From a virus (taxonomy: Duplodnaviria; Heunggongvirae; Uroviricota; Caudoviricetes): a stretch of DNA of 53,576 nt. Below, in pieces: positions 9,264 to 35,903 of the stretch. The position numbers and the translations under genes are program-made. The notes under the pieces are model-generated. The model did no database searches. It saw nothing but the letters and a program-made list of their open reading frames with translations, and was not told the DNA's origin. The DNA lies in IMG/VR virus record IMGVR_UViG_3300028048_001599. One strand, given 5' to 3'. Every line of letters begins with the position of its first letter. Within the stretch, counting starts at the first letter, position 1.

Positions 9264-9341
9264 AATGGGTATTACTTATATAAATGATAGACGCAATAGT
9301 TCATGGTTTTTCTCCAATGACAGTTTATAGATATAATGGTT

Positions 9342-9789: not shown

Positions 9790-9793
9790 TATT

Positions 9794-9840
9794 AAGCGCC
9801 TGAAATTTGTTAAGTAACAGAATTTCGGGTGCTTACTTTA
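9794..9840 (+). terminator. Probable intrinsic terminator
   Basis: AAGCGCCTGAAATT / AATTTCGGGTGCTT stem with G-U pairs, T-rich tail. Confidence 0.65.
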
Positions 9841-9895
9841 TTTCCTACTAAATGATTAATAATAAGAAAATCTAAATTAGGAGAATGATATTAAA

Positions 9896-10945
9896 ATGAA
9901 AGTAAGGCTTATTGAGTTATTCAGTGGTATAGGTGCACAGGCTAAAGCACTTGAAAACCTTGGTGTTGATTTTGAGCATTATCGAAGTGTGGAGATTGAC
10001 GAAAAACCTGTGAAAGCATATAATATACTCCATGGTACTAACTTCAAACCCCAGTCAATAACCGACATCTCAGGGTCAGAATTAGGGGTAGAAAATCTTG
10101 ACGAGTATCTTTATATAATGACATATTCATTCCCGTGTCAGGACTTGTCAGTAGCAGGTCAGAAACGAGGTATGTCTGAGGGTTCGGGTACTCGTTCGTC
10201 TTTACTGTGGGAAGTTCAAAGGTTACTTGAAGAAATGGATGAGGACAAACGTCCACAGGTGTTATTGATGGAAAATGTCACAGCTGTTCACAATAAACTA
10301 AACTATAATGATTTTATGAAATGGCATGGCATCCTTGAGGATTTAGGCTACACATCATATTGGTTTGATATGAACGCATATGACTATGGGGTACCTCAAT
10401 CAAGACCGAGGTGCTTTATGGTTTCTTTTGCATCACCTCAGTGTATGTTCTTTGAACCACCTGAACCTATTAAACTCAAGAAAACATGGCGTGAAATTAT
10501 AGATGTGTCTATTGACAGTTCATTATCACCGCTTCTTATAGAGCGGTATAAAAACATATTGCCTGATTTGAATTTGCCACAAGGTTTATCACTTATATCA
10601 GCGTCATACAATCCAACGGTGTGTGATAAATATGTTTATTGTATAACAACAAGAGTTGATAGAATTGAACGTCTGTTTGAGAAAGCAGGTGGACTTGTAG
10701 TAAATCGTGATGGTGACGATTATTCTGTAAGGTACGTTGCTGCAAAGGAAGCACTAATGTTTATGGGTTTTGGGGTAGATGATTATGACAAACTCAAGGA
10801 TACATTTTCAGAAGCACAGATATACAAGTTTGCAGGTAATTCAATAGTTGTAAATGTCCTGATGTTCATATTCAAGGCTATATTTGACCATCTTGACTTA
10901 AACGATGGTATTGAAATAAAGTACACATGGCGAGGTGATAATTAA
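9896..10945 (+). CDS. C5-cytosine DNA methyltransferase (orphan)
   Basis: ELFSGIGA (I), FPCQDLS (IV), MENV (VI), QSRPR (VIII), AGNSIVV (X). Confidence 0.93.
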   Translation: MKVRLIELFSGIGAQAKALENLGVDFEHYRSVEIDEKPVKAYNILHGTNFKPQSITDISGSELGVENLDEYLYIMTYSFPCQDLSVAGQKRGMSEGSGTRSSLLWEVQRLLEEMDEDKRPQVLLMENVTAVHNKLNYNDFMKWHGILEDLGYTSYWFDMNAYDYGVPQSRPRCFMVSFASPQCMFFEPPEPIKLKKTWREIIDVSIDSSLSPLLIERYKNILPDLNLPQGLSLISASYNPTVCDKYVYCITTRVDRIERLFEKAGGLVVNRDGDDYSVRYVAAKEALMFMGFGVDDYDKLKDTFSEAQIYKFAGNSIVVNVLMFIFKAIFDHLDLNDGIEIKYTWRGDN

Positions 10946-13466: not shown

Positions 13467-14504
13467 ATGGCAAGACCACACGATAAAACCGGTTTAAGAT
13501 ATGGTAGACTCCTTGTTCTTGAAAGATTACATGATGAAAATGGGACATTACTGTATAAATGTCAATGTGACTGTGGTAATGTGACTTACGTTAAAACAAA
13601 TTATTTGTGTGACAGTAATACTGTGAAATCTTGTGGTTGTGTTAAAAAAGAGCTTCTCACAAAGAGAAGGCAGGAAGCATTAGACAGGGTGTTAGGTAAG
13701 AAGTTCGGTAGATTAACAGTCTTGGAATTTCAAGACAAACCTGGTGCAAGAAAATTACACTTTTTATGTCAGTGTGACTGTGGTAAAAAGATAGTAACGA
13801 CTAACGATTCTTTACTAAGCCAGCATACTATATCTTGTGGTTGTTATCAAAGAGAAGTTGTCAGTAAGGTTAAAGAAATGATAGGTAAGAAGTTTGGTAG
13901 ACTTACGGTAATAAAACCTGTTGAAGAAAAAGCAAGTAACGGTAACTATAAATTCTTATGTCAGTGTGAGTGTGGTAATACAACCATAGTTACAGGGGGA
14001 CATTTACGCACTGGAACTACAATCTCATGTGGGTGTGCCATAGTTGTAGATAAGACTGACATAATAGGTAAAAAATTCGGTAGATTAACAGTACTTAGTC
14101 TTGACGAAGTTAACAAATACATAAGATATAAATGTAGATGTGACTGTGGCAATGAAATTGTAACATATCGTTATGCCTTAATTAATGGGGAATCACAGTC
14201 ATGTGGATGTAGACAACGTGAGGTTGCATCTAAAAACATAAACAACTATTTAGGTACTGTTTTAAAAGAAAAATCAAGATTAGATTTGATGAATACTAAA
14301 CTACATGTTAATAATACCTCAGGAAGACGAGGTGTCAGTTGGAATAATAATAACCAGATGTGGGAAGCCTACATAGGTGTTAAAGGAAAACGTATAAAAT
14401 TAGGTTACTTTACTGAATTTGATGATGCTGTAAAAGCAAGGGAACAGGCGGAGCATGATATGTGGGAGCCAACATTAAATAAGTATGGCAGAGAGTTGGA
14501 GTGA
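13467..14504 (+). CDS. AP2-domain protein with four CxCxCG...SCGC repeats (homing-endonuclease related, no visible HNH core)
   Basis: 4x G(K/L)(K/R)(F/Y)GRL.V...C.C.CG...SCGC; C-terminal NNTSGRRGVSW...W.AYIG..GKRIKLGYF. Confidence 0.8.
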   Translation: MARPHDKTGLRYGRLLVLERLHDENGTLLYKCQCDCGNVTYVKTNYLCDSNTVKSCGCVKKELLTKRRQEALDRVLGKKFGRLTVLEFQDKPGARKLHFLCQCDCGKKIVTTNDSLLSQHTISCGCYQREVVSKVKEMIGKKFGRLTVIKPVEEKASNGNYKFLCQCECGNTTIVTGGHLRTGTTISCGCAIVVDKTDIIGKKFGRLTVLSLDEVNKYIRYKCRCDCGNEIVTYRYALINGESQSCGCRQREVASKNINNYLGTVLKEKSRLDLMNTKLHVNNTSGRRGVSWNNNNQMWEAYIGVKGKRIKLGYFTEFDDAVKAREQAEHDMWEPTLNKYGRELE

Positions 14505-15304
14505 GCAACATGTATAAATTATACAATGACGACTGTTTAAAGGTAATGCCTACATTGGAGCCGCATAGTATCGACATGATTTTGTGTGACTTACCATATG
14601 GGGTATTAAGCAAATCGAATGAAGAAGCACAATGGGATAAACCATTACCCTTTGATGAATTATGGAAAAACTACAATAGATTAATAAAACCTAACGGTGT
14701 CATAGCTTTATTCGGTCAAGGTTTATTCTTTGCGGAGTTGATATTATCAAACAAGGACGATTTTCGTTATGACCTTGTATGGGATAAGCAACTTACAAGT
14801 GAGTTTCTCAATGCAAACAGGAAGCCAATGAGGGTTCACGAGCAAATAGCTATATTCTACAAAGGTAATCCTACATATAACCCGCAAATGACCAAAGGTA
14901 AACCTTTACATAGTAAAGGCACACGGTACAAATTAGGTGGTTCAAATTCAGCCTACGGTTCATACGGGGTAATTGAACAACAGCAAACAATAACAGATGA
15001 TGGTTACGCAGAAAAATATCCTACTTCACTGTTATCATTTCAAAAACCACATCCGTCAAAAGCTGTTCATACAACTCAAAAACCCACTGAACTTCTTGAT
15101 TGGTTGATTCGAACGTATACAAATGAGGGTGACTTGGTTCTTGACAACTGTATGGGTTCAGGTTCAACGGGGGTATCTGCTGTTCAATTAAACAGGGACT
15201 TTATAGGAATTGAGGCATCTGAGCGTTATTTTCCGATAGCAGAAAAAAGAATTGATGACGTGTCTGACGGTGCTGATTTACTTGACTTTAATGGTCTGGA
15301 ATAA
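14501..15304 (+). CDS. Beta-class amino DNA methyltransferase
   Basis: CDLPYG, HTTQKP, DNCMGSGSTG. Confidence 0.92.
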   Translation: MSNMYKLYNDDCLKVMPTLEPHSIDMILCDLPYGVLSKSNEEAQWDKPLPFDELWKNYNRLIKPNGVIALFGQGLFFAELILSNKDDFRYDLVWDKQLTSEFLNANRKPMRVHEQIAIFYKGNPTYNPQMTKGKPLHSKGTRYKLGGSNSAYGSYGVIEQQQTITDDGYAEKYPTSLLSFQKPHPSKAVHTTQKPTELLDWLIRTYTNEGDLVLDNCMGSGSTGVSAVQLNRDFIGIEASERYFPIAEKRIDDVSDGADLLDFNGLE

Positions 15305-15943: not shown

Positions 15944-16723
15944 GTGGTGATTCTATTGTACGATTTATATAATGACGACTGTTTAAAAATAATGCCAACA
16001 CTGAAACCGCATAGTGTTGATATGATTTTATGCGATTTACCTTATGGTACAACAAATAACTCATGGGACACAGTAATACCTTTTGATGAACTGTGGACAC
16101 AATATAAAAGGTTAATAACCGACACAGGTTGTATTGCACTATTTGCTCAGGCTCCATTTGACAAGGTTCTTGCTTGTTCAAACCTTGAAATGTTTAAGTA
16201 CGAGTGGATTTGGCAAAAGACAATGGCAACAGGGTTTGCTAACAGTAAACATGCCCCTATGAAGGGTCACGAACAGATATTAATATTTAGTAAGGGGGTA
16301 GCTGCACCGTCATCAAGAGCTGACAGGTGCATGACATATAATCCTCAAATGACTGAGGGTTCTTTTTACAAAACTAAATCAAAACCTACATCATCAAACT
16401 ATAGTGTAAATAAGTCATTTGTATCTGAGAGTAGCGAAAGATATCCTGTTGACATCATTGAATTTCAGCACGACCGTCCATCGGTGCATCCTACTCAAAA
16501 ACCTGTTGCTCTGTGTGAGTATTTGATAAAAACCTACACTAATGAAGGTATGATAGTTCTTGACAATTGTATGGGTTCAGGTTCAACAGGGGTAGCATCC
16601 GTAAGGTTAAATAGGGACTTTATAGGGATAGAAAAAGAAAAGAAGTATTTTGACATTGCAAAGAAAAGAATACAGGACGTAGAAAATGGTGCTGACTTGT
16701 TAGATTTCAATGCTTGTTATTAA
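15944..16723 (+). CDS. Beta-class amino DNA methyltransferase, paralogue of 14501..15304
   Basis: CDLPYG, HPTQKP, DNCMGSGSTG; 5' DNA visibly similar to the paralogue. Confidence 0.92.
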   Translation: MVILLYDLYNDDCLKIMPTLKPHSVDMILCDLPYGTTNNSWDTVIPFDELWTQYKRLITDTGCIALFAQAPFDKVLACSNLEMFKYEWIWQKTMATGFANSKHAPMKGHEQILIFSKGVAAPSSRADRCMTYNPQMTEGSFYKTKSKPTSSNYSVNKSFVSESSERYPVDIIEFQHDRPSVHPTQKPVALCEYLIKTYTNEGMIVLDNCMGSGSTGVASVRLNRDFIGIEKEKKYFDIAKKRIQDVENGADLLDFNACY

Positions 16724-17959: not shown

Positions 17960-19353
17960 AAATATTAAAATCAATATAAATTTTATAATAAATTTTGTTT
18001 AAAATAAAGGATGATAACGCATGATTGTAACAAGGGTAGAAAAACATATCTTAAAACAGAATAATGAATATTACTCTTTGATAGATGATTTTTGTTTAAA
18101 GGCTAAAAATCTATATAACCATGCTAATTATATTATCAGACAAGAGTTTTGTTCATCAAATAAATGGATAAGATATTCAGATTTAGATTCTATTCTTAAA
18201 AAGGATAAAGATTATCCAGATTATGCAAATATGCCAACAGCGCAATCAGCACAGCAGATACTTCGTCTTTTAGATAAAAATTGGGTTTCATTTTTTAAAT
18301 CAATCAAAGATTGGTCTAAACATAAAGATAAATATTTAGGTAGACCAAAACTTCCTAAATACAAGTCTAAAAATGGTAGAGAAATACTAATATTGACAAA
18401 TCAAAATGTTAAACTTAAAGGTGACATACTTCATTTTCCAAAGACATTTAATAAATTTACTATAGAACCACAATTTATCAATAGAAGTGATTTTGTTTCG
18501 TTTCAGCAAGTGAGATTCTTACCGAGGAATAAACATATAGTAATAGAGATAGTTTATAATATTGAAGTTCCTGATTTAGTAAATGATAATGGTAGATATT
18601 TAAGTATTGATATAGGGGTAGATAACTTATCAACCATAACAAATAACTTTAATGAAGCACCAGTTATTGTAAATGGTAAAGGTCTAAAGTCTATGAATCA
18701 ATACTATAATAAATTATTAGCACATTATAAATCAATAACAAAAACGTTAAATAAACAAGACTATTCAAACAGACAAAACAAATTTACTATTAAGAGAAAT
18801 GCTAAAATAACTGATTACTTACATAAAACAAGTCGATTTATTGTAAATTATGCAAAACAACATTCAGTTTCAGTTATTGTTATAGGGTATAATAAAGAAT
18901 GGAAACAGAATAGTACTTTAAGTAAAAAGGTAAATCAACATTTTGTTCAGATTCCTTTCAATATTCTAATACAACAGATACAGTATAAAGCTGAAGAGTT
19001 TGGTATTAAAGTTATTTTAGTAGAAGAGAGTTACACATCAGGAACATCATTTTTAGATAATGAATTACCTGCAAAAGAAAATTACAACAAGAGTCGAAGA
19101 AAGCATAGGGGTATATTCAAATCTAATAATGGTACATTGATAAATGCTGATGTAAATGGTGCATTTCAAATTTTAAAGAAGGTATTTCCAAATGCGTATG
19201 CAAATGGGGTAGAGGTTGTAGTGTTTCAGCCAATCAAAGTAAACTGCGGTTGATTGATAAAGTTTTTATTAAAATTTTTTAACAGTTGTTAATAGTTTTT
19301 ATTAAAAACAAAACATTAAGATTTTGGTAATGGTTCAAGTGGTAATGATTCAA
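17960..19353 (+). mobile_element. Solo-tnpB (IS1341-like) element, ends uncertain
   Basis: tnpB with AT-rich palindromic flanks (TTAACAGTTGTTAA); candidate right end TTCAA at 19349-19353; left end not resolved. Confidence 0.4.
18021..19253 (+). CDS. tnpB: TnpB RNA-guided endonuclease (IS200/IS605-type, no adjacent tnpA)
   Basis: AKNLYNHANYIIRQ; RuvC SIDIGVDNL, VEESYTS, NADVNGA (D-E-D intact); no Cys zinc finger. Confidence 0.92.
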   Translation: MIVTRVEKHILKQNNEYYSLIDDFCLKAKNLYNHANYIIRQEFCSSNKWIRYSDLDSILKKDKDYPDYANMPTAQSAQQILRLLDKNWVSFFKSIKDWSKHKDKYLGRPKLPKYKSKNGREILILTNQNVKLKGDILHFPKTFNKFTIEPQFINRSDFVSFQQVRFLPRNKHIVIEIVYNIEVPDLVNDNGRYLSIDIGVDNLSTITNNFNEAPVIVNGKGLKSMNQYYNKLLAHYKSITKTLNKQDYSNRQNKFTIKRNAKITDYLHKTSRFIVNYAKQHSVSVIVIGYNKEWKQNSTLSKKVNQHFVQIPFNILIQQIQYKAEEFGIKVILVEESYTSGTSFLDNELPAKENYNKSRRKHRGIFKSNNGTLINADVNGAFQILKKVFPNAYANGVEVVVFQPIKVNCG

Positions 19354-19354
19354 G
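19325..19354 (+). repeat. 15-bp tandem duplication
   Basis: TGGTAATGGTTCAAG TGGTAATGATTCAAG. Confidence 0.8.
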
Positions 19355-19450
19355 GTCGGTGGAATTTGGTAAATTATTCCAATTTTTGATTAGTACTTGA
19401 ATAAATACCAAAATTTTAATATGTAAGTCAAATTTCGAGGACGTGAAAAT

Positions 19451-20413
19451 ATGATTAAACCAATAGGTATTTCTAAGTATTCTCACTACACAATATCGGA
19501 AGATGGTGTAGTAATGAAAGGGGGTAGGACTTTAAAAAGTTATAAGGATACATATAAAGATGTTATGCTTATATGTTTGAGAAGCTCAATAACGAATAGA
19601 CCATCTCCTTGTAGACTTGGTTATATTGTCGCAAAGACATTTATTGATAATCCTAATAATTATAAATATGTAATGCACAAGGATGGGAATTTTCGGAACA
19701 ATTCAGCGAGTAATCTTGAATGGACAAATATATCACCGCAGTGTAATAAAGAAAAGAATATAGCAAAAACTCCTGTAACTGTAACAAATTTGAGAACACT
19801 TGAGGTACTTGATTTTTCAAGTGTCTATGTTGGTGCTAAATACTTATGTAGGTCATATAGTATCAAGGAACGTTCGATGTACGGTCACTTAAATAATAGA
19901 TTGTTGAAAAATAAGTACTGGGTGTATAAAGATTACCTCATAACATATAAGGGGGTAACTCCTGACGTTCCTGATGACTTTAATTTAATCAATTATAAAC
20001 TGGAAAATGAGGTATTAACTGAAAATATCACAAGGTCAATACTTCGTCGTTTTGTATTGAATGGTAAAATTAATTTTATAACCGTTTGTGGTGTTAGATA
20101 TTACTCAGTAAAAGAACTGACTGCTTTTTTCAATTCTGACTGTTATAAAAAATATTTCGGTATTAGTGATATTCCAATATATAATGGTAGCAGAATAAAA
20201 GACACGATGAAGCCTGTGGTTCTTACAAACATAATAACGAATAAATCTTATTCTTTTTCGTCACTAACAGCAGCTTCGGAATACTTGATAAACATATATA
20301 ATACAGCAAAGATTGAAACAATACAGCAATCTTTAAGTAGAGCACTTAGGCTAAACAAACCAAAATACAAAGGATTTTATATTAACAAACAGGAAGTGAA
20401 AAATAATGGTTGA
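19451..20413 (+). CDS. HNH homing-endonuclease-like protein with NUMOD/IENR-type repeats
   Basis: VMHKDGNFRNNSASNLEW; repeated PVTVTN/PVVLTN..FSS helical modules. Confidence 0.75.
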   Translation: MIKPIGISKYSHYTISEDGVVMKGGRTLKSYKDTYKDVMLICLRSSITNRPSPCRLGYIVAKTFIDNPNNYKYVMHKDGNFRNNSASNLEWTNISPQCNKEKNIAKTPVTVTNLRTLEVLDFSSVYVGAKYLCRSYSIKERSMYGHLNNRLLKNKYWVYKDYLITYKGVTPDVPDDFNLINYKLENEVLTENITRSILRRFVLNGKINFITVCGVRYYSVKELTAFFNSDCYKKYFGISDIPIYNGSRIKDTMKPVVLTNIITNKSYSFSSLTAASEYLINIYNTAKIETIQQSLSRALRLNKPKYKGFYINKQEVKNNG

Positions 20414-21803
20414 AATTGTATCTGTACCTATTAAGGGTTGCGAAAATTACAAGATTTCCTCAGATGGAAAGGTATTCAATAAGTTAGGCAAAGAGTTAAA
20501 ACAGGAGTTGAACCCAGATGGAAGTTTGAACATCTGTATTACAAAGAATATAGACGGTGTTCGTATTCAAACTCATTTATCTGTGGCTCGTCTTGTTGCT
20601 TTAGCTTTTCTACCTATGGATAAAGAATACCGTTTCGTAAGACATAAGGACGGTAACAAGAAAAATAATAACGTAAATAATATTGAATGGGTTACTGACA
20701 AACGTAAACAGGAAAACCCCAATCAGTCGAGGGCATCTGAAGTTCTTGTAATGAACATGTATACGGGTGAAACTCAGAGGTTAGTAAGTATTACAGCATT
20801 TGCTCGTTTTATGGCAATGAAGTATCCTGAAAAGACAGAGACTCAGCACTTGCGTTCAATAAATCATTATTTGTCATTCAAACCGAGATTTGTTATTTAC
20901 TATGAATATAAGTTAAACGTGACAGTAATAAAATTAACCGATGAGGAAATATCTTACAACTTTAATGATTATATAGGTACAGATGAAGCTATAAAGATAT
21001 TGGGGGTATCGAGACCTCATTTTAAGAATATTGTTTTACGTTATAATATTCGGTCATTTTCTCAGAAGTCAACATTTTGGTATCATAAAGATGACCTTAA
21101 AAAAGCTGCTCAGGATATTTTTGTTTTGAATAATTACATTTATTATAAATCGGATTATAACTTTAATATAATACCGGAAAATTCAGAAAAGAAATACGGT
21201 GCAAAGTCTGTTATGCTAAACAATAGAATGACTGGTGATGTAATATTTTTTAATTCACTAACTGATTGTGCAACGTACATATGTGCGGTATCAGAAAAAC
21301 TTGATACGGACAAACTTACTGTAGAGCATATGTTGCAGAGTTTAAGTAAAAAGTTATCACAGGGTAATCATAGTTACAAGTTCTTTGAAATCAGCTTCAC
21401 ATCTGATAGTGTAGTGAAGAAGGCAAATAAGGCAAATAAGACAAATAAGGTAGAAACAGTAAATAAAGCATCTTACAAACCTAATTCTGCTGATTATGTC
21501 CTTATGTCAACAATTGACAGTACAGACAAACAAAAAGAAAACCTTAAGAAAGCTATATTAGGAAACATTAATGTATTTCCGTTTCCTAATGAAATCAAGG
21601 TATCAGACGTGTACTCATTACCTGCTGTAGCTGAAATTTTAAAACTTCCGTATAGTACAGTGTCAGCGATGTCAAGATTTGGGGTATTTCCTACTTACAT
21701 AAAAGACAGAAGTGCTAAAATTCGTTATATTAAATATAACGATTTAATTAATTTCTTAAAAAATGTAAGGAAAAACAGAGGGGAAGTATTAGAAATTACA
21801 TAA
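20406..21803 (+). CDS. NUMOD4-HNH protein with two excisionase-like HTH modules
   Basis: IKGCENYKISSDGKV; VRHKDGNKKNNNVNNIEW; IGTDEAIKILGVSR and YSLPAVAEILKLPYSTV. Confidence 0.75.
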   Translation: MVEIVSVPIKGCENYKISSDGKVFNKLGKELKQELNPDGSLNICITKNIDGVRIQTHLSVARLVALAFLPMDKEYRFVRHKDGNKKNNNVNNIEWVTDKRKQENPNQSRASEVLVMNMYTGETQRLVSITAFARFMAMKYPEKTETQHLRSINHYLSFKPRFVIYYEYKLNVTVIKLTDEEISYNFNDYIGTDEAIKILGVSRPHFKNIVLRYNIRSFSQKSTFWYHKDDLKKAAQDIFVLNNYIYYKSDYNFNIIPENSEKKYGAKSVMLNNRMTGDVIFFNSLTDCATYICAVSEKLDTDKLTVEHMLQSLSKKLSQGNHSYKFFEISFTSDSVVKKANKANKTNKVETVNKASYKPNSADYVLMSTIDSTDKQKENLKKAILGNINVFPFPNEIKVSDVYSLPAVAEILKLPYSTVSAMSRFGVFPTYIKDRSAKIRYIKYNDLINFLKNVRKNRGEVLEIT

Positions 21804-26929: not shown

Positions 26930-27088
26930 AAACGTACCTAAAGATTAATAGGTGTAATCAAAAAGTGTTATATTTTAGTTAATGCTTAATGTGGCTATTT
27001 ATTAAGTTTAGCGAAATATCGGTGTTAAATAGTATTAAATACTTGATTGATTATTCGTACATGAAAATGTACCAAAAGATTAGTAAGT
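26923..27088 (+). repeat. Two 31-bp imperfect direct repeats, 135 bp apart
   Basis: TACATGAAAACGTACCTAAAGATTAATAGGT (26923) vs TACATGAAAATGTACCAAAAGATTAGTAAGT (27058). Confidence 0.8.
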
Positions 27089-27197
27089 ATAAACGGAAAA
27101 AGTTTATCAGTCAAAGTAGGGGGTTTCCATTCCTGCACTCCTTACTTATGTAGAGTACAAGAAAGGTTTTCATTCATTTTTATTTTCTCTTTTGCAT

Positions 27198-27364
27198 GGG
27201 GTGGTACTCCAACCACCCCGCTCACATGAATATATCGCCTTTCATTTTTATAAACTGGTCGGGTGGTTGTTTCCACCCACCCGACCACTCGAATGAGTTT
27301 ATCATTATGTACTCAATCTGATTGAATACATAATGATGGATTCAAGTAACTTCCATTAGGTTAC
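27198..27364. ncRNA. Cluster of hairpins: candidate structured RNA or ssDNA signal
   Basis: 8-bp GC stem 27198-27219, 11-bp stem 27256-27287, ~16-bp stem 27301-27337, 5-bp stem 27346-27364. Confidence 0.45.
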
Positions 27365-27395
27365 AAAATCTATCAAACCTAAAGTTGGTGAAATT

Positions 27396-28205
27396 ATGAA
27401 CATGGTCGAAAGGTACAAAGAGATATGTAGAGTTCAGGATTTACTCACTGAATGGTTCGATAAAATAACTCCAGTTTTCAGCACAGACGATGTAATACTC
27501 GACTGTATGATTTTAAGGGGTTACGAATCTGAGGAAATGTATAACCGACTCAAAGATATCAAACTGTTCAAAATTGACGATATTGATTCAGCTAATCTAA
27601 TTCATTCTGTTAGTGAAGAAGATTACGAGTTGATGGGATTAAAAAAGAACGGTACATACCTTTTAAGTGGACGGTACTGTGTTCCAATTAGGACAATAGA
27701 TAACAAAGTCAGTGCTATTGTAGGTTACTTTCCCGACCAAAGAAAGTATGTAACGACACCAACGGTAGGGTTCAGTAAGAATACTTCTCTATTTGGGGTA
27801 GAACATTCTGAATATTTTGATGCTCCTTATGTGTGTTTGTGTGAGGGTATCTTTGATACCTTATCATTACAAGCTTACGGGTTTCCGGCACTCGGCAATC
27901 AGGGTTTAGGTTTATCTGTTTACAAATCCGAAATGCTAAAAAGGTATAAGAAGATTGTAGCAATACCTGACGGTGATAAAGCTGGGGCTACTGCAAATCC
28001 TTATAAAGCACATTCAACTGGTAGAAAGACAAATAGTTGGAATATTCCCTTTGACAATAGTGTATTCATTGACTTATCGGTTTTATATCAGTTGGGGGTA
28101 AAAGATGTCGATGACTACTTCAAGAGAGGGGTATCTGCTGAGCAAATCAAAGACTTGGACAACATCTTCAAGTCGAGTCGCTATATGTTTACTTTAAAAG
28201 AGTAA
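27396..28205 (+). CDS. DnaG-like primase catalytic/TOPRIM domain, no zinc-binding domain
   Basis: GRYCVPIR, LCEGIFDTLSL, IPDGDKAG, KDVDDY. Confidence 0.82.
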   Translation: MNMVERYKEICRVQDLLTEWFDKITPVFSTDDVILDCMILRGYESEEMYNRLKDIKLFKIDDIDSANLIHSVSEEDYELMGLKKNGTYLLSGRYCVPIRTIDNKVSAIVGYFPDQRKYVTTPTVGFSKNTSLFGVEHSEYFDAPYVCLCEGIFDTLSLQAYGFPALGNQGLGLSVYKSEMLKRYKKIVAIPDGDKAGATANPYKAHSTGRKTNSWNIPFDNSVFIDLSVLYQLGVKDVDDYFKRGVSAEQIKDLDNIFKSSRYMFTLKE

Positions 28206-28296
28206 AGATGTTAAGATGTTAAGACGCTAAGACGCTAAGACGCTAAGACGCTAAGACGCTAAGAAAAAACAAGACGCTAAAAATGCTAAAAATGCT
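28205..28296 (+). repeat. 8-bp tandem array (AAGACGCT family)
   Basis: AAGATGTT x2, AAGACGCT x5, gap, AAGACGCT, AAAAATGCT x2. Confidence 0.92.
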
Positions 28297-28321
28297 AACA
28301 AAGAAAGATGAGGTAAACGTT

Positions 28322-29383
28322 ATGTCAGTAAAGGTTAATATGGCAGAAGTACTTAAAATGAGACAGTCACAGGAAATTGATAAACCTTACGGTTCATCAG
28401 ACAGTAAGTTTCCGCTGTTCAAGACACCCGTAAACGAGCGTCTGCTTGTTTACATTCCGTCCCTGAATGTTATAGAGCATGAGGATGGTACATCAACAAA
28501 CGATGTTCTCGAAACTGCACTTCACAACTATAAGTTAGGTAAGAAATTTGGTACAATAACTTGTATTTCAGGTATCGACAATGATAGTCCTATCGCTGAA
28601 ATCCTTGGTTATAAAGACCACACTTGTCCTGCTTGTGACGCAGTAAACGAATGTTGGAATCTTGTAAATGCTAAGACCGAAGCAAAAGCAAAGGAACTGG
28701 GGGTAAACCCTGAGAATGACCCCGAAGAGGTTCTCAAGCCCTTCAGAAAGAAGTACATTCAGGATATGGTTATGACTCGTGCATCAAAGTACGTAACATT
28801 CCCGATTGTTGTTATTCCACATAAGGGTAACAGACTGACAGGGGAGTCGGAGTCAGGTATGTCTGCGTATTATGTTACAATGACAGAGCAGAGATACAGA
28901 GAAAAGGTTTGTGCATCACTTTCAACTCTGTTTAATAACCCTGGTCATATCGGTGGACGTTTCATGGTTTGGGATTTCACTTATGATTCAAATGGGGCAC
29001 AGCATAATGCGAGAGATTCAGCTAAGAACGCTAAGTTCAACATTATTATTGACCCCGCAGCACTTCAGGCTTTTGAACCCATCAGAGCTAAGGCTGAGGA
29101 GCTTGCTAAGGAGTTTACCAACATTAAGGCACTTGAGGTTCTTACAGCACTTGAGCCTGTTGAATACTCTAAGCTTAATTCTTCTGTAGACTCAGTTATG
29201 AAGGAAACAAGAAAGATTCTTGCTATGGTAAGTGAGGGTTCGGACATTGCCGCACTTCCGTCAGCACCTGAAAAGATTCTTGAAAGCTTTAGTGCAACAC
29301 CTCTGAGTGACGGTAATCTTGGGGTAACTGAGATTGCTTCTGCTGATGCTAATGCGACTGCAGGTGCTCACCGTTTCGATTGA
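28322..29383 (+). CDS. T4 gp32-like single-stranded DNA-binding protein (probable)
   Basis: C..HTCPAC zinc site, VTFPIVV strand, flexible tail ending RFD; position in replication module; start at ATG after GAGG. Confidence 0.6.
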   Translation: MSVKVNMAEVLKMRQSQEIDKPYGSSDSKFPLFKTPVNERLLVYIPSLNVIEHEDGTSTNDVLETALHNYKLGKKFGTITCISGIDNDSPIAEILGYKDHTCPACDAVNECWNLVNAKTEAKAKELGVNPENDPEEVLKPFRKKYIQDMVMTRASKYVTFPIVVIPHKGNRLTGESESGMSAYYVTMTEQRYREKVCASLSTLFNNPGHIGGRFMVWDFTYDSNGAQHNARDSAKNAKFNIIIDPAALQAFEPIRAKAEELAKEFTNIKALEVLTALEPVEYSKLNSSVDSVMKETRKILAMVSEGSDIAALPSAPEKILESFSATPLSDGNLGVTEIASADANATAGAHRFD

Positions 29384-29416
29384 TAACAATAACTAAATAG
29401 CACTGACATGAACAAG

Positions 29417-29446
29417 ACCGCCTTGTATAGCACAAGGCGGTTTTTT
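29417..29446 (+). terminator. Intrinsic terminator
   Basis: ACCGCCTTG / CAAGGCGGT then T-run. Confidence 0.8.
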
Positions 29447-29496
29447 ATTACTTGTTCATTTACCATTTGATTATAGAATAGAAAGGTGGTGAAATT

Positions 29497-30924
29497 GTGA
29501 AGGAATATAAATTTATAGCACCGAGAGTAATTACTGAGTTTGATGATTTTGAGTTTTCTTTTTATACTTGGTCAAAGTTAAGACTTGATAACATGTTTAA
29601 TATTATTCCGCACTACAGCGATTTGTATGTAAATATATCGGATAAAGTAAAACAAGAATCACACTGGGATTTAAGTCCATGGCATAGTTTAACTTATAAA
29701 GACAAAGATGGGGTAAATCATGACATTGCTTTTGAGGTTGATTTAGACAATTTAATGAAACATAAAAGGCTTTTGAAATACACTGAGGGATTAATAAAAG
29801 CTGAAAAAGAAGAAAAGGCAAAAAATAAAGTAAAGAAACCTAAAATAAAGAAAGCGAAAGTCAAGAAGTCCAAGGTAGTACCTAAGAAATCGAAGGTAAT
29901 AAACACAAAGTCAGAAGTTGATACAACTATAACAGTTAGTGGGGATACCGTTAATGACATTACCGGGGTCACCGAGGTCACTGAGGTAATTGAGGTAATT
30001 GAGGACACCGACGAACAGCAGACAACCACAGCAACGGAAGTATCATCTGACGTTTCAAGTGATGTAGTCAAATTTGACGAGGTGATATTATACGAAGACC
30101 TCAAACCAAAAGTAGTAGACCCAATTATAGATATCTACCAAGTCTTAAAGAAGAGGGGTACATCGAAAAATAATGATATTATCACCAACAGACAAACAAT
30201 TAAACGTATAATGGGAATAGATATAGGTATGAAGAACATGGCTGCAATAACAAGTAACGTGTTCAAACCTGTTTTTATAAGTGGTATTCCATTATATAAA
30301 ATCTTAGATACTTATGCTGGTTGTTTTATAACACCTGGTTATGGTAGATTCTCATATAAGCACAGGAAATCATCTCAGAAAAGACATCTTGAAAGACGAA
30401 ATGATAAACTTAAAGACTACCTCATTTTGTGCGTTGACAAAATAATGGAACTTATAAGTCATAATAACATTGATTGTGTAGTAATAGGTTATCCTGCAAC
30501 ATGGGGTAACCACAAAAAGTTCAATATAAAAGGGGCTGAACAGATGACTCAACGTGTATTATGTCGTTTCAAAGATATGATAAAAAAGCGTTGTTCAAGA
30601 CATGATATTGATTGTGTAGAGATAGATGAAGCTTTCACATCAAAATGTAGTTTTCTTGATAATGAGCCCATAGGTAGACACAAAGAATATAGGGGTAGTA
30701 GAACGGATAGAGACACTTACATAACAAACTCAGGACATCAGATTAATGCCGATGTTAATGCAAGTCTGAACATTATAAAAAAGTATCTAAGTTCTATAGG
30801 AGAATGGGGTACTATTTACAGATATCAACTTATAGGTGCAGTGGCATTAAGTCGATATTGTAGTTTTAACACAGAGATAGGGGTGAATGACATTGTCCAA
30901 AGCAAAGATACAGCACAAGAATAA
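29497..30924 (+). CDS. Divergent TnpB-family RuvC nuclease with non-canonical N-terminus
   Basis: MGIDIGMKN, IDEAFTSKCSFLDNE, INADVNASLNI; N-half = unknown domain + Lys-rich + Thr/Glu/Val linker. Confidence 0.8.
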   Translation: MKEYKFIAPRVITEFDDFEFSFYTWSKLRLDNMFNIIPHYSDLYVNISDKVKQESHWDLSPWHSLTYKDKDGVNHDIAFEVDLDNLMKHKRLLKYTEGLIKAEKEEKAKNKVKKPKIKKAKVKKSKVVPKKSKVINTKSEVDTTITVSGDTVNDITGVTEVTEVIEVIEDTDEQQTTTATEVSSDVSSDVVKFDEVILYEDLKPKVVDPIIDIYQVLKKRGTSKNNDIITNRQTIKRIMGIDIGMKNMAAITSNVFKPVFISGIPLYKILDTYAGCFITPGYGRFSYKHRKSSQKRHLERRNDKLKDYLILCVDKIMELISHNNIDCVVIGYPATWGNHKKFNIKGAEQMTQRVLCRFKDMIKKRCSRHDIDCVEIDEAFTSKCSFLDNEPIGRHKEYRGSRTDRDTYITNSGHQINADVNASLNIIKKYLSSIGEWGTIYRYQLIGAVALSRYCSFNTEIGVNDIVQSKDTAQE

Positions 30925-31411
30925 TCAAAACAAGTCAGATAGTAAACCTAAGCAAAAGAGCGAGGGTGAGGTAGATGATGTTTTAGTAGGTTCTGGGGAA
31001 GAATTTTTAAGTCTTGCGGTAAACTTAATTACCTCTATAATGCTTGCTAAATCTGAATATGCAAGATATACCTCAGAACTTTCTTACTATGACCAGTTAA
31101 TTGAGGATTACCTACATGTTCTCGAATTAGAGAATCAAAACTGGTCTGAGCGTGCAAAAGTAGCAACTCAGTTAGCTTATGCACGTAAGCAAAGACGAAT
31201 CGTGAAAAACGAATTTGAGTTACTGCAGCCTATAGTTTCATTTGCAAACTCAGATAGTGGTAAAAAGTTTCTTGAATCCTTAAGGTCACTGTCAGGAAAT
31301 GTTAGAAACGTAGATAAAAGGCATAAGCAGTCAACATATAAATGTCGTGTACTACATTTAGATGAGGACGGTAAAATAAATCTCAAACCGCCAAAGAGGG
31401 AGGACAAATGA
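30887..31411 (+). CDS. Hypothetical helical protein
   Basis: Overlaps preceding gene by 38 bp; heptad-like middle. Confidence 0.7.
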   Translation: MTLSKAKIQHKNNQNKSDSKPKQKSEGEVDDVLVGSGEEFLSLAVNLITSIMLAKSEYARYTSELSYYDQLIEDYLHVLELENQNWSERAKVATQLAYARKQRRIVKNEFELLQPIVSFANSDSGKKFLESLRSLSGNVRNVDKRHKQSTYKCRVLHLDEDGKINLKPPKREDK

Positions 31412-31698
31412 ATAATAAGTTAGACGACTATGATATAGCATTTGAGCCGTATGAAAAAATGGGCTTTAAACCGTTAAACAGTAACAAGTTAAGGGGTTTG
31501 CTATTCGGGATTATAGGCTCTATTATGATTGCTTATATGTCAATCTTACTGAACATGGTAGTCTTAACAACACTACTATTAAGATGTGCCACAGTTTTAT
31601 TATTTTTAGGTATTCTTAGTTTATGTGCTGCAATCATATTCGGGGTACTTGGTGTTATTGAAGACAACCTAAAAAAGGACAAAAAGATTAGTAAGTGA
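31408..31698 (+). CDS. Small membrane protein (2 TM)
   Basis: Two hydrophobic stretches. Confidence 0.7.
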   Translation: MNNKLDDYDIAFEPYEKMGFKPLNSNKLRGLLFGIIGSIMIAYMSILLNMVVLTTLLLRCATVLLFLGILSLCAAIIFGVLGVIEDNLKKDKKISK

Positions 31699-31708
31699 GG
31701 TGATAAAA

Positions 31709-32938
31709 ATGATACAGTCAATTTATATTGAAAATTTTATGTCAATATCATCAGCTAATATACAGTTTGATGACAGCAATATCATATCATTGTGTGGCTA
31801 CAACGATAGTGGTAAATCTGCTGTTATAAGACTGATTGACATAATGTTTTACAATGCATACTCTACTGAACAGGTTCACTACATCAAGGATGGTGCTGAC
31901 TTCTTCAAGTGTATTATATCATTCAAGGATGGGGTAGAATACGAGCGTATTAAATATGCTACAGGTTCATCTGTTTTTGTACTGAGAAAAGACGGAAAAA
32001 CATTATTTGATAATCGTAAAGGTAATCAAATCATAAACACAGACGGTGTTCCAAAAGTAATCATGGATTATTTGGGGGTAATACGCGACGAATTTACTAA
32101 GGAGGAGTTGAACGTCCGGCGTTGTACTGATAGATTGTTCCTGATTGAAACAACGGGTGGTGACAACTATAAAATCCTTAACACAATTCTTCAGTCTGAT
32201 AGACTCGCTGAAACGTCAAATAGTCTGAATACAGATAAAAACAAACTACAGCAGGAGATTGTGGTAAGTTATAACAGATTATCAGCACTCAGGGACGAGC
32301 GTGACAGGGTTGTTGTAAGTTCAGGTGATTCAATAGATACATTTGAAAAAGACGTCACAACTCTTGAAGCTATAAACGAACGTTTCAAACTATTGAATAA
32401 AATAAATGACTATAACACATTAATCACAACGGTAAAGATACCTGATGAATTATCAATGATAGACGTTTTCAGGTATATGGAAATAGACAGAATAAAGGGG
32501 TACTCAGAAAAAGCCAAAATTGCGATATCACCTGAGGCTCCTACGATATCTGATGTTTTAATTGATAAATACTCTAAATTGAGTGAAATGACCGAAACAA
32601 GAAAACGGACGGATGTAGTAATACAGTCTGAAGTCGATGTTGTAGATATCGACAGGTATAATTCCATTGCAGACCTTATTTCAAAGCAGAGTACCACCAA
32701 GGTAGATATCCCAAAGGGGGTATCTGAAATTGATATCGACAGACTTAATAAAATAAGCAATCTATCAATCATAGCTTCACATTTCAATTCTTGTAATAAT
32801 ACATATGAAACCATAGTTACCGAGTGTGACAAAGCAACATCGGAGTTAAAGAGATTTGCGGACACGAATAATTTGACTATATGTTCAAATTGTGGTGCTG
32901 TTGTATCAAAGGATATAGGAGGACATGTTCATGTATAA
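31709..32938 (+). CDS. sbcC: SbcC/Rad50-like ATPase, N-terminal half
   Basis: IYIENFMS, Walker A GYNDSGKS, coiled coil, terminal CSNC hook. Confidence 0.82.
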   Translation: MIQSIYIENFMSISSANIQFDDSNIISLCGYNDSGKSAVIRLIDIMFYNAYSTEQVHYIKDGADFFKCIISFKDGVEYERIKYATGSSVFVLRKDGKTLFDNRKGNQIINTDGVPKVIMDYLGVIRDEFTKEELNVRRCTDRLFLIETTGGDNYKILNTILQSDRLAETSNSLNTDKNKLQQEIVVSYNRLSALRDERDRVVVSSGDSIDTFEKDVTTLEAINERFKLLNKINDYNTLITTVKIPDELSMIDVFRYMEIDRIKGYSEKAKIAISPEAPTISDVLIDKYSKLSEMTETRKRTDVVIQSEVDVVDIDRYNSIADLISKQSTTKVDIPKGVSEIDIDRLNKISNLSIIASHFNSCNNTYETIVTECDKATSELKRFADTNNLTICSNCGAVVSKDIGGHVHV

Positions 32939-33902
32939 AGCACTAATTATAGGTGACTTACATATTTCAGATGCATATGTGGGTTATCATAAGGACTACT
33001 GGGCTGAGTGTACAGAAATTCTTGGTAAAATCACTTCAATCATAGTCGATAAGGGGGTAACACATCTCATATTAACGGGTGACCTTGTTGGTTTGCGTGA
33101 GAAAAATTTCAAACAGCGTGCAAGCCTGATGTTGTTTATGATGGCACTCAAAAAATGGAATGAACTTACCGATTATAATGTTTACTCTCTTGTAGGTAAT
33201 CATGATATGAGCGGTCGAACAACTGATTTCGAGTTATTTGAGAGTCTTGGTCTTATAAAAACTACTCGAACACTTGGTAAAAGTTTCTTAGATATCAATG
33301 ATACACGTTTTCACATGATTAATTTCGGTGATGAGAATAACAAAATTGAATTGAAAACAGGAACAGATGCTACCAATATAGGAATAACTCATGCAGACAT
33401 TCAGGTTACAGGCAAAACAACATGGTGGTACCCTTCAAATGTAAGATTTGAATTAGCAACAATGGAACATTGGAAGGGTATCGAAATGATTATCGCAGGA
33501 CACATTCATAATCCGTCACCTAAAATGGTAACAACTGATATTGACGGTTCAAATGTAAACCTGTTTTATGTTGGGTGTCCAACAAGACCTCGTAAGAATG
33601 ATAATTGGGAAAAATGTTGGGGTACATTGTTTGAGATTGATGGTACAAACGTAAATTGTTCTATTCTTGAAATTCCGTTACCTGTTGATGTGTTCGTAGA
33701 AACAACGGAGGATATCGACACGGAGGAGCTTGAAACTGATGAGGTAACAAAGATTGAGGAACTTGCAGCAATTTTGAATACATTGTCTGAGTATAAACTT
33801 GACTCAGATGATGATATCGAGGGTCAGATAAAAAGGTTCTCAGGGGTAGACACAAAAGCTATGAACTTAGCTTTGGAATATTATAACCGTGCTAAATCTT
33901 AA
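32931..33902 (+). CDS. sbcD: SbcD/Mre11-like nuclease
   Basis: GDLH, GDL, GNHD, THA, GHIH metallophosphoesterase motifs. Confidence 0.88.
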   Translation: MYKALIIGDLHISDAYVGYHKDYWAECTEILGKITSIIVDKGVTHLILTGDLVGLREKNFKQRASLMLFMMALKKWNELTDYNVYSLVGNHDMSGRTTDFELFESLGLIKTTRTLGKSFLDINDTRFHMINFGDENNKIELKTGTDATNIGITHADIQVTGKTTWWYPSNVRFELATMEHWKGIEMIIAGHIHNPSPKMVTTDIDGSNVNLFYVGCPTRPRKNDNWEKCWGTLFEIDGTNVNCSILEIPLPVDVFVETTEDIDTEELETDEVTKIEELAAILNTLSEYKLDSDDDIEGQIKRFSGVDTKAMNLALEYYNRAKS

Positions 33903-33976
33903 ATACTTGCTTTAGCACCATAAGATTATATAATGTCAGCAAAAATGTTGAAAATATAAAAAGAGGGAGTAATCTA

Positions 33977-34687
33977 ATGGATATTATTTCAGAAGTAAAA
34001 GCACTTAATTCAAAGGCTGCGGAACTTAACGAAGCTCGTAAAAAGGCATTGTGGGAGAAGAACAGGGCTGAGGAAGAACTCAAGACTGCACTTGTTGAAT
34101 ACAACAAGAAGTATGGTACATCACTCACAGCTGATGACATCAGTTCAGAGTTTTCAAAGGTCGAGGCTGAAATCAAGGCACAGGCAGAGAAGGTTAAGGC
34201 TGAGATTGAAGCCATTGAAAACGGCGAAGAAATCGTAGACACTGGTGTTGAAAACGATGACACAGTAGGTACTCACAAAAACTCAGGGGTTTCTGAAAAC
34301 TCAGTAGCTTCTGGAAACACAGTAGCTTCTGGAAACACAGTAGCTTCTGGAAACACAGTAGCTTCTGGAAACACAGTAGCTTCTGAAAACACAGTAGCTT
34401 CTGGAAACACAGTAGCTTCTGAAAACACAGCGGCTTCGACAGGTACTTCATCAAAGGTTCGCAAGGTTGACGCAGCATATATTGCCGATGGTTCGTTTTT
34501 GTTTGATAACACAGAGGACTTCGCAAAGCAGATAGTAGGAGGGGTAGCAACCGAAGAAAAGTCAATTGACGAGATTCTTGCATCTGCTACTAAGGAGGAA
34601 CCTATTAAGGTAGAGGAAAAATCGAAGGAAGAGCCTAAGAAACCCATAACGACCATCGGTGGTTTTGATTTTTCAAAATATATTTAA
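33977..34687 (+). CDS. Coiled-coil protein with VASGNT repeats and acidic tail
   Basis: Helical N-terminus; 7x hexapeptide; ends FDFSKYI. Confidence 0.75.
   Translation: MDIISEVKALNSKAAELNEARKKALWEKNRAEEELKTALVEYNKKYGTSLTADDISSEFSKVEAEIKAQAEKVKAEIEAIENGEEIVDTGVENDDTVGTHKNSGVSENSVASGNTVASGNTVASGNTVASGNTVASENTVASGNTVASENTAASTGTSSKVRKVDAAYIADGSFLFDNTEDFAKQIVGGVATEEKSIDEILASATKEEPIKVEEKSKEEPKKPITTIGGFDFSKYI
34304..34429 (+). repeat. 18-bp coding tandem repeat x7
   Basis: GTAGCTTCTG(G/A)AAACACA. Confidence 0.95.
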
Positions 34688-34700
34688 GGGGTAGATAACA

Positions 34701-35903
34701 ATGAAGATAACAATGCCAATAGCAAATCTTAATAAAGCACTTGACTCATTCAAGGTAATCCTTAATGACGCACTGCTCGCTGATGACAAGCGTAATATTA
34801 TACTTTGGAAGAAGGAGGACGGTGTTAAACTTGTAGCAAAAAATGATATCATTGACTGTATCTGCGATATAGAAGCCACATCTGTAGTAGATGGTTCTGT
34901 AAATGAAATGCAGTCAATCAAGTATAAGGAATTACAGGGGGTACTTGATGGCTTTAAGTCACTGAGAGTGACTCAGGCTACTAACATTTCATTTGAGTTT
35001 CTTGAAAACTTCATAGCTGTTGAAGTTGAGGAGGAGCCAATTGATAAGGACAGTGATTATGCTGAAAAACTTTTCAGAACGAATAAGTATCAGCTTTCGA
35101 GGTCGAAACCTGTATCTGATGTTCAGCGTAATGAAATTCTTGCTGTATCTCTTTCAGATGAGGGTACTGTTGTAAATAAGGATGATATCATTCCTTATTT
35201 TGCATCGCTTCTTCCGACAGTAAAGGATATGCGAGAGGGTGTACCTACAAGATTTAATGTAGTAGGTGATTATATCTATACAACACCGATGTCTTTTGCG
35301 GCACTGATGTATAATACAGTACCTGAGTTTAAAGACTTTATTCTTACAAGTTCAGCTGCTAACTTTATGAAATCATTCTTTGAGCTTGAAGATAAAACAA
35401 ACATCAACATTGAAGCTATTAATGAAAATGCTAAGATTGTACGTCTGAGTAATTCAATGGCGATGGCTGTTGTAAAGACAATATCTACAAAGAAGGCTTT
35501 CAACGTAGCAAACTATATCGAATTACCCTCAACAGGGGTAGCCGTAGACAAGGGGTATTTTTGTGATGTTATCAAGCGTTTCACAAATAATGCTGAGGCT
35601 ATCAAGATTACTATAAAACCTGAGGAAATAACTCTTAAACAGTCAAGGGTCACAATGTCAGTTCCGGTATACACTGCAAGACTTGATGATAACTTCACTG
35701 AAATGACTTTCTCAGTTAATGCAAATGTTCTTTCAAACCTTGTATTCGCTCATGCAAACTTCAGTAATCTGCTGTTCATCTACTTTAAGAAGGTAGGTAA
35801 CAAGTGGGCAGTATCATTCACAGACGATAGTTTTGTAAATGATGCAGACGGTAACAAGAAACATGTATGGTGGACAGGTGCTAATTTCAAGGACAACAGA
35901 TAA
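34701..35903 (+). CDS. DnaN-like (beta) sliding clamp
   Basis: 400 aa; N-terminus MKITMPIANLNKAL..NIILWKKEDGVKLVAKND follows the beta-clamp pattern; replication context. Confidence 0.7.
   Translation: MKITMPIANLNKALDSFKVILNDALLADDKRNIILWKKEDGVKLVAKNDIIDCICDIEATSVVDGSVNEMQSIKYKELQGVLDGFKSLRVTQATNISFEFLENFIAVEVEEEPIDKDSDYAEKLFRTNKYQLSRSKPVSDVQRNEILAVSLSDEGTVVNKDDIIPYFASLLPTVKDMREGVPTRFNVVGDYIYTTPMSFAALMYNTVPEFKDFILTSSAANFMKSFFELEDKTNINIEAINENAKIVRLSNSMAMAVVKTISTKKAFNVANYIELPSTGVAVDKGYFCDVIKRFTNNAEAIKITIKPEEITLKQSRVTMSVPVYTARLDDNFTEMTFSVNANVLSNLVFAHANFSNLLFIYFKKVGNKWAVSFTDDSFVNDADGNKKHVWWTGANFKDNR

Follow-up and report, generated by a model that had tools for sequence, protein, structure and literature searches.

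We analyzed a stretch of 53,576 nucleotides (nt) from a virus of the class Caudoviricetes (IMG/VR record IMGVR_UViG_3300028048_001599), referred to hereafter as the window, focusing on a gene for a TnpB-derived nuclease that lies between a gene for an SSB-like protein and genes for SbcC- and SbcD-like proteins. The nuclease gene (29497..30924, on the plus strand, as are all the other features of this locus described below) encodes 475 amino acids from a GTG codon positioned eight bases behind AAAGGTGGTG. Because the N-terminus led by this GTG, VKEYK[FY]I.P, is kept in two related loci (L001 and L002), we regard 29497 as the right start of the gene. The analysis follows up a reading of the window made from its letters and open reading frames, which we call the original prediction.

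The C-terminal half of the protein constitutes a RuvC and TNB nuclease module spanning residues 230-458 (30184..30870), supported by model confidence, by Foldseek and VIA matches and by an invariant catalytic triad. The three RuvC acidic residues reported in the original prediction are all present as D242 (30220-30222), E378 (30628-30630) and D419 (30751-30753), within the motifs GIDIG, DEAFTS and NADVNA, respectively, and their alignment across eight members of the nuclease family reveals no substitution at any of the three. Profile searches assign this half, and only this half, to TnpB. The Pfam family PF07282 (Cas12f1-like_TNB) matches residues 357-426 with 36.8 bits against a cutoff of 26.3, phrog_506 matches at 1.5e-12, and the NCBIfam model NF040570 (guided_TnpB) matches at 5e-16 with 58.9 bits, against a cutoff of 100, through profile positions 194-389 of 389 only. 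The match to OrfB_IS605 is sub-threshold, PADLOC returns only weak Cas12f RuvC matches, and the matches to TnpB models span residues ~230-435. Between residues 237 and 429 the nuclease shares 29% identity with the canonical TnpB encoded elsewhere in the window (18021-19253), and this stretch contains the SFLDNE segment that had been singled out as common to both proteins. The CxxC zinc ligands of the TNB domain, which is inserted between RuvC-II and RuvC-III, are absent from the nuclease, as they are from the consensus of its nearest canonical relatives.

Structure prediction leads to the same assignment. AlphaFold2, run on a 120-row alignment, modeled residues 231-450 with a mean predicted local distance difference test (pLDDT) score of at least 90 in most ten-residue blocks, and the best PDB matches of the model obtained with Foldseek were mimivirus Fanzor2 and several Cas12f and TnpB structures (E to 3e-8, ~200-220 columns). 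Alignment with VIA yielded a Z of 15.9 to Cas12f 8dzj (182 aligned residues, root-mean-square deviation 3.0, model residues 236-434) and a Z of 12.3 to ISDra2 TnpB 8h1j (model residues 235-436 on chain residues 184-378). The best structural matches cover mainly nuclease residues ~234-436, and all those listed are TnpB, Cas12 or Fanzor proteins.

The N-terminal half presents a different picture. Residues 1-112 (29497..29832) form a lineage-specific module, and the region that follows (29794..30183) comprises a Lys-rich helix (residues ~100-135), an acidic low-complexity linker of Thr, Glu and Val, and a pre-RuvC segment extending to residue 229. The sequence agrees with the earlier description of the N-terminal ~230 residues as an unrecognized domain followed by a Lys-rich stretch and a Thr/Glu/Val linker, and searches of Pfam, PHROGs, NCBIfam, PADLOC and PDB sequences with residues 1-230 returned no match. 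No stand-alone homologues of the N-terminal module were found on search, and an ESM Atlas feature search with this module returned only unnamed small proteins at chance-level scores. In TnpB, the N-terminal half (WED and REC) holds the omega-RNA and the guide-target duplex; profile-profile alignment with hhalign detected no similarity between the N-terminal region of the nuclease and the N-terminal halves of 21 or 75 canonical TnpBs. The full AlphaFold2 model has a pLDDT of 33-53 for residues 1-90, a helix at residues 83-109 and values below 50 through most of residues 114-217, and residues 1-120 folded alone with four homologues reach a pLDDT of 41. Structure prediction, which had been suggested as a check on WED and REC loss, hence leaves the catalytic half alone recognizable and, in the low-scoring N-terminal region, produces a weak alignment to WED strands that is weighed below; the loss of REC is judged from sequence only.

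A search of 5.8 billion proteins identified three full-length relatives of the nuclease, P0002, P0003 and P0004 (98%, 67% and 38% identity, respectively), and an exhaustive profile search added P0123, P0124 and P0125 (28-32% identity) together with the short forms P0122 and P0126. The added relatives score at least 248 bits, versus at most 162 for canonical TnpBs, and have in common a C-terminal extension to residue ~455-470. In a tree of the RuvC half, the eight family members form a single clade (Shimodaira-Hasegawa-like approximate likelihood ratio test, SH-aLRT, 92; 99 with P0126), which is nested by a long branch within the canonical TnpBs without being sister to the one encoded in the window. 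The short form P0126 (229 amino acids), which contains only RuvC and TNB with the C-terminal tail of the family, is the sister branch of the family (SH-aLRT 99). Two subfamilies carry N-terminal modules without detectable mutual similarity on orthologous RuvC halves, and hhalign detects no similarity between the module of the window and that of the P0123 subfamily. Both subfamilies nonetheless have a common layout, consisting of a module of ~100 amino acids, a Lys/Arg-rich stretch, a linker and the RuvC domain. The region from the Lys-rich helix through the linker to the pre-RuvC segment is the most divergent part between relatives.

Orthologues of the nuclease (28-98% identity) are found at the same place in eight other distinct metagenomic contigs, giving nine distinct loci in all (the window, L001, L002, L003, L005/6/7, L008, L009, L010 and L011). 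In every contig that is long enough, the gene order is a RecD-like helicase, a Toprim-domain protein, an SSB-like protein of 354-366 amino acids, a terminator, the nuclease, one or more small genes, and the SbcC-like and SbcD-like genes; the nuclease gene is present in single copy and at a fixed syntenic position in all carriers. As first noted, neither tnpA nor a CRISPR array was found in the window, and no terminal repeats were found around the nuclease gene; the locus itself contains no repeats or arrays, and, apart from the terminator of the neighboring gene, the flanks of the nuclease gene show neither repeats nor hairpin ends. The synteny comparison put forward in the original prediction thus places the gene in the same slot in nine loci, and the accompanying selection analysis, detailed below, yields ratios of 0.17-0.19. 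A patchy presence with insertion sequence (IS) ends in relatives had been named as a sign against domestication; what we observe are carriers confined to one clade and one slot, with no IS ends found. The nuclease gene is immobilized, with a single origin and a fixed position, and its description as a TnpB-derived, immobilized nuclease with an intact active site is well supported.

Megablast of the locus against INPHARED phages returned no match, tblastn recovered only the RuvC halves of canonical TnpBs, and scans of IMG/VR and JGI metagenomes with the alignment of the nuclease family or of the SSB-like protein revealed no relatives of the lineage. Sequencing runs from 18 studies, on the gut of cattle and sheep or on related metagenomes, contain DNA of the carriers, and the window itself may derive from one of them; the nuclease gene is therefore ecologically common.

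To place the carriers among their relatives, 47 relatives of the SSB-like protein were collected and a tree was built. All the carriers that could be placed (the window, L001, L002, L005-7 and L011) belong to one 20-row clade (support 99/96). Its sister is L014, which has three LRR_5 genes in the slot occupied by the nuclease (8522-10571). In L015, 200 nt separate the SSB-like gene from the SbcC gene (8066-8263); in L012 the slot is non-coding, with a terminator and 470 nt rich in G and T (9126-9593), and in the more distant L013 it contains three small open reading frames (9206-10680). All four of these loci keep the helicase, Toprim, SSB-like and SbcCD order, their syntenic slot is devoid of the nuclease and membrane-protein genes, and tblastn could not trace the nuclease anywhere in them (15-17 kb each). 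Since four relatives with the same module do without the nuclease in this slot, the gene is not indispensable to the recombination module. The proposal that a TnpB had been domesticated inside the replication and recombination operon is consequently upheld as regards immobilization, which extends to nine loci, but not as regards an integral part in the module, given its absence from four relatives. The gene had likewise been placed between SSB and SbcC-N; the position is correct, but the protein called SSB has no detectable family and two small genes precede the SbcC-like gene.

This accessory distribution argues against the nuclease being the phage's indispensable Holliday-junction resolvase or debranching enzyme, acting as a partner of SSB and SbcCD; a resolvase was the first of the two options in the original prediction. 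A RuvC-fold nuclease with an intact triad, encoded by the first gene of a unit that contains SbcC and SbcD, could fill that role, and the Pfam family PF03652 (RuvX) matches residues 312-385 only, with 26.2 bits (below the cutoff of 29.2), a match that recurs at sub-threshold level in all members. However, besides the four relatives with the same module and no nuclease in the slot, the best structural matches are the RuvC domains of Cas12f, TnpB and Fanzor, not RuvC resolvases, and the nuclease evolves faster than every neighbor, with 43% amino acid identity between the window and L002 versus 57-74% for the helicase, Toprim, SSB-like, SbcC and SbcD proteins. We consider an indispensable resolvase very unlikely.

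Another gene of the slot encodes a small membrane protein of 96 amino acids (31408..31698) and ends 1 nt before the SbcC-like gene. Its DDYDxAFEPYEKMGFKP motif is conserved, N-terminal and cytosolic, and is followed by one or two hydrophobic helices. The membrane protein is co-inherited with the nuclease, a link that the original prediction does not make: wherever a carrier locus reaches far enough, its gene follows behind that of the nuclease, and it is absent from L012-L015. A complex prediction for the two proteins returned a score of 0.00, which carries no weight either way. The simplest history is that of a two-gene accessory cassette, composed of the nuclease and the membrane protein, that was acquired once into a variable slot and then retained. 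In the window, the two genes are separated by orf174 (phrog_2717; 30887..31411), a gene seen in no locus other than the window, L001, L003 and L010. The ATG at 30887 is replaced by ATA in L003, a 98%-identical strain, and by ACA in L001; in both of these loci, orf174 is called from a TTG that lies two codons further on. The overlap of 38 bp with the nuclease gene reported in the original prediction holds if orf174 starts at the ATG, whereas the TTG starts of L003 and L001 give 32 nt, and the true overlap may, on this comparison of start codons, be the shorter one.

Estimates of nonsynonymous (dN) and synonymous (dS) substitutions indicate that the nuclease is maintained. The dN/dS ratio is 0.166 between the window and L001 (dN 0.185, dS 1.12) and 0.19 between L005 and L011, and both halves of the protein are under purifying selection. 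Between the window and L001, the N-terminal module has a dN of 0.16-0.30 and a dS of 0.7-3.1, with the linker being saturated, and the RuvC half has a dN of 0.05-0.10 and a dS of about 1. These values bear on the reading of the gene as the relic of an old IS insertion, in decay or without catalytic importance, to which an unrecognizable N-terminal half and a stop codon in one carrier would lend themselves. The latter is a single in-frame TAA at 212-214 of L010, a contig of 1.5 kb, located in the acidic linker of a frame that is otherwise open into the RuvC half, and it reflects either an error in the assembly or a lineage in which the N-terminal half has been split off or lost. Pseudogene decay, another sign that had been named in advance as speaking against domestication, does not emerge from the data: dN/dS is 0.17-0.19 at a dS above 1, the triad is invariant in eight members, and frames remain intact in all carriers except L010, down to 28% identity. 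A decaying remnant is hence barely credible, and appears nearly refuted by the selection data.

Relative to L001, the nuclease gene and orf174 (29400-31300) stand out as a hyper-divergent patch, with 56-87% nucleotide identity against 90-97% in the flanks, which points to mosaic allele exchange or to fast evolution of the cassette. This pattern is relevant to a further explanation, according to which the locus would be a selfish, homing-type cassette. Its nuclease would cut co-infecting relatives that lack the cassette, at the SSB-like/SbcC junction or in some conserved gene close by, and the cassette would then be copied in by recombinational repair, as happens with free-standing phage homing endonucleases and in the ancestral role of TnpB itself. 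A variable slot between conserved genes, cassette-less relatives in the same habitat, and a phage rich in selfish elements, among them a canonical TnpB and two HNH/NUMOD4-type genes (18021-21803), are all in keeping with homing. The modular architecture with its long linker moreover resembles that of I-TevI-type enzymes. I-TevI combines a small nuclease domain, a long flexible linker and a separate recognition module, and sits between conserved phage DNA-metabolism genes; its fold is GIY-YIG rather than RuvC, and the likeness in layout is one of predicted logic. Yet the presence of the cassette is clade-wide instead of patchy and mirrors the two subclades of the SSB-like tree, the gene is more divergent than its flanks, the opposite of what a recently spreading element would present, and homing offers no obvious role for the co-inherited membrane protein. 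We therefore judge a homing cassette to be quite unlikely.

A question raised by the lack of similarity to WED and REC is whether the nuclease still uses a guide RNA. In each of the nine distinct loci, the end of the nuclease gene is either covered by the next gene, over 8-50 nt, or followed by it at a distance of 4 nt, extending to all these loci the earlier observation that no intergenic room is left for a transposon right end or an omega-RNA. The identity of this next gene varies between loci, being either orf174 or the membrane-protein gene. Rfam returned no match, whether gathering thresholds were applied or E values up to 10 allowed, and no synonymous constraint was detected at the 3' end of the gene in the independent pair L005/L011. 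A normal omega-RNA overlapping 30887..31411, which the original prediction had listed among the findings that would count against it, was accordingly not found in Rfam or in the L005/L011 comparison. The folding z-score of 30700-30960 is -0.09 and does not discriminate, since the 3' end of the canonical tnpB used as positive control reaches only -0.54. In four metatranscriptomes, the RNA contigs over 30650-31400 have a depth of 4-7, which is weak evidence, as RNA-seq contigs reveal neither small RNAs nor transcript ends and cannot rank genes, and a low depth in them does not mean absence.

The interpretation to which we lean, at about an even chance of being correct, is that the protein is an RNA-independent accessory DNA endonuclease whose RuvC/TNB cleavage would be directed by its new N-terminal and basic segments. 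Several points weigh against this interpretation. The evidence against a guide RNA is all negative, consisting in that no positive sign of an omega-RNA was seen, and TnpB omega-RNA scaffolds can sit inside coding sequence. Between the window and L001, the last ~70 codons of the gene have a dS of 0.15-0.18, versus ~1 elsewhere in the gene, which may hide constraint. Several VIA alignments begin at model residues 60-62, where they pair with the first N-terminal WED strands of Cas12f, a weak hint from a low-confidence region that the N-terminal half might contain a degenerate WED. Lastly, the absence of the nuclease from the four non-carriers refers to loci of 15-17 kb, not to whole genomes.

A rival explanation is a nuclease that is still RNA-guided, through a non-canonical guide or scaffold RNA encoded within the coding sequence or elsewhere, with the N-terminal module replacing WED and REC. 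Candidate sources would be the 3' end of the gene together with the beginning of the one that follows, a region at 26930-27395 that is rich in hairpins, and the omega-RNA of the resident IS at ~19250-19400; the last two would amount to loading in trans, the second option of the original prediction. Descent from TnpB and a retained TNB domain suit this alternative, as do the low dS of the last ~70 codons and the weak structural hint, in which strands at residues 62-80 align to WED strands. Against it stand the lack of non-coding space in nine distinct loci, the differing downstream genes, the absence of 3' synonymous constraint in L005/L011, the empty Rfam search and the lack of sequence similarity to WED and REC. 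The low 3' dS was considered as a signal of an embedded RNA and rejected, since it equals the background of the flanks (90-97% identity) and is missing in the comparison of L005 with L011; we read it as a probable product of mosaic recombination. Taken with the points just listed, an RNA-guided nuclease appears unlikely.

The genes upstream of the cassette constitute a separate unit. A Toprim-domain primase-like gene (27396..28205), identified by matches to PF13155 (Toprim_2) and to PHROG DNA primases, is followed by the gene for the SSB-like protein (28283..29383; 366 amino acids), in which the motif HTCPACD..ECW is invariant and the C-terminal tip, HRF(D), is conserved. No family was detectable for the latter in Pfam, PHROGs or PDB sequences, and the protein is highly conserved, with 53% identity where the nuclease has ~30%. 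An intrinsic terminator (29414..29444), made up of a 13-bp stem and a T-run, follows it, and L001, L002 and L005 as well as the non-carriers L012 and L015 have an equivalent hairpin behind their SSB-like gene. The terminator closes the Toprim/SSB-like unit and is a feature of the upstream gene rather than of the cassette. It had been described as nested in a second stem; the terminator is present and conserved, and the outer 9-bp stem (29408-29416 / 29451-29459) does exist in the window, but it is not conserved in the 67%-identical L001 and is probably due to chance. Downstream of the cassette lie the SbcC-like N-terminal ATPase half (31700-32938; PF13476, AAA_23) and the SbcD-like phosphoesterase (32925-33902; PF00149, Metallophos), supported also by PHROG exonuclease/SbcD matches, with no terminator-like sites found on the plus strand from 29445 to 34800.

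Expression data were available from four rumen metatranscriptomes of four studies. In each, the Toprim and SSB-like genes are covered by a single contig of high depth (43-660x). These contigs begin at 27229-27362 and end at 29250-29418, near the terminator, which as a contig boundary is weak evidence. The RNA contigs over the nuclease gene and SbcCD have a depth of 2-18x. The pattern suggests that the Toprim/SSB-like unit is very strongly expressed, and fits a separate, weakly expressed unit comprising the nuclease gene and SbcCD. Two further features of the upstream unit were observed. A tandem repeat of TAAGACGC (x6.6) occupies 28205-28264, between the Toprim and SSB-like genes, and because RNA contigs of different studies differ in it by deletions of 16 or 24 nt, its copy number is variable between strains. 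The non-coding region upstream of the Toprim gene (26930-27400) contains two copies of TGTACC[AT]AAAGATTA..TA.GTGTAAAC as well as GC-rich hairpins; these elements are conserved in L001 and partly in L002, and the high-depth RNA contigs start inside the region. Elsewhere in the window, Pfam matches at 264-1475, 9896-10945, 14501-15304 and 15944-16723 correspond to a protein with PARP catalytic and WGR domains, one C5 cytosine methyltransferase and two N6/N4 methyltransferases, and judging from these genes the phage DNA is probably multiply methylated.

On the preferred interpretation of an RNA-independent endonuclease, a TnpB of the clade with a cysteine-less TNB domain would have been captured once by the ancestor of one clade of large rumen phages. 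The site of capture would be the variable slot that extends from the terminator of the SSB-like gene to SbcC/SbcD, with the small membrane protein acquired alongside. RuvC and TNB, with the D-E-D triad, were kept, and a module of ~110 amino acids, a Lys-rich helix and an acidic disordered linker of ~100 amino acids would now stand in place of the WED and REC half. The enzyme would cut DNA without a guide RNA; its N-terminal module and basic helix, tethered to the nuclease by the linker, would provide recognition of DNA or of a partner, and the protein would be produced in small amounts along with SbcCD. Its accessory role might be the processing of single-stranded or branched DNA in recombination-dependent replication, or alternatively an attack on foreign DNA of the host or of a competing phage, in which case three DNA methyltransferases may shield the genome of the phage itself.

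A bolder version of the second role is that the family represents a reversion to protein guidance, in which interchangeable N-terminal modules on long linkers, together with the membrane protein, make up a weapon against incoming or resident foreign DNA that spares the phage's own methylated genome. We hold this version to be unlikely; if true, it would imply superinfection exclusion, or cleavage of the DNA of competitors or of the host.

The family can be set against known forms of TnpB. It nests inside canonical TnpBs (ISDra2, 8h1j; 18021-19253 in the window) and has the same RuvC-I/II/III triad with an inserted TNB domain. Unlike them, it has no detectable WED and REC, no omega-RNA space, no transposon ends and no tnpA, and it is distinguished by a novel N-terminal module, a disordered linker, a longer conserved C-terminal tail and a fixed single copy. 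Exapted TnpBs are mostly nuclease-dead and keep their guide, as reported by Altae-Tran et al. 2023 (PMC10691335). The same study describes non-mobile, active TnpBs, namely PrimPol-linked forms, GATase-linked forms of ~280 amino acids from Sulfolobaceae (WED and RuvC) and RuvC-only forms of ~220 amino acids from halobacteria, and considers the latter two probably RNA-independent, with a function that is unknown (PMC10691335). The phage nuclease is like these short TnpBs in being immobile, in having an intact RuvC, in the loss of REC (here by sequence) and in leaving little or no room for an omega-RNA. It differs in that they are archaeal, chromosomal and simply shortened, whereas the gene described here is carried by a phage, where it accompanies a small membrane protein upstream of SbcCD, and its product has gained two types of new N-terminal module as well as a long charged linker. 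TldRs have lost the catalytic residues but kept WED and REC, with the guide RNA in a long 3' untranslated region (PMC10705468), and exapted dead TnpB/Cas12f proteins have been linked to sigma factors (PMC13472631). With both, the phage nuclease has in common the domestication of TnpB outside its transposon, sometimes in a phage-encoded form; compared with TldRs, its triad is intact, and the RNA-binding half (by sequence) and the untranslated region are missing. We found no mention of a phage SbcCD-linked TnpB derivative in PMC10691335 or in the TldR papers retrieved. TnpB derivatives that are exapted, active and devoid of REC are a kind already known (PMC10691335), of which the phage SbcCD-linked form, with its rebuilt N-terminal half, would be a variant.

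The significance of these results lies in the direction of change that they would imply. TnpB is the ancestor of Cas12, and in nearly all of its known domestications, whether as CRISPR effectors, as TldR repressors or as partners of sigma factors, the guide RNA has been retained. As relatives with and without the cassette exist, the contribution of the cassette to phage fitness is directly testable. If the preferred interpretation is true, a clade that kept the active nuclease module and rebuilt the rest from protein would have followed the opposite path, from an RNA-guided to a protein-targeted enzyme, and would provide a natural example of a small and portable RuvC/TNB core.

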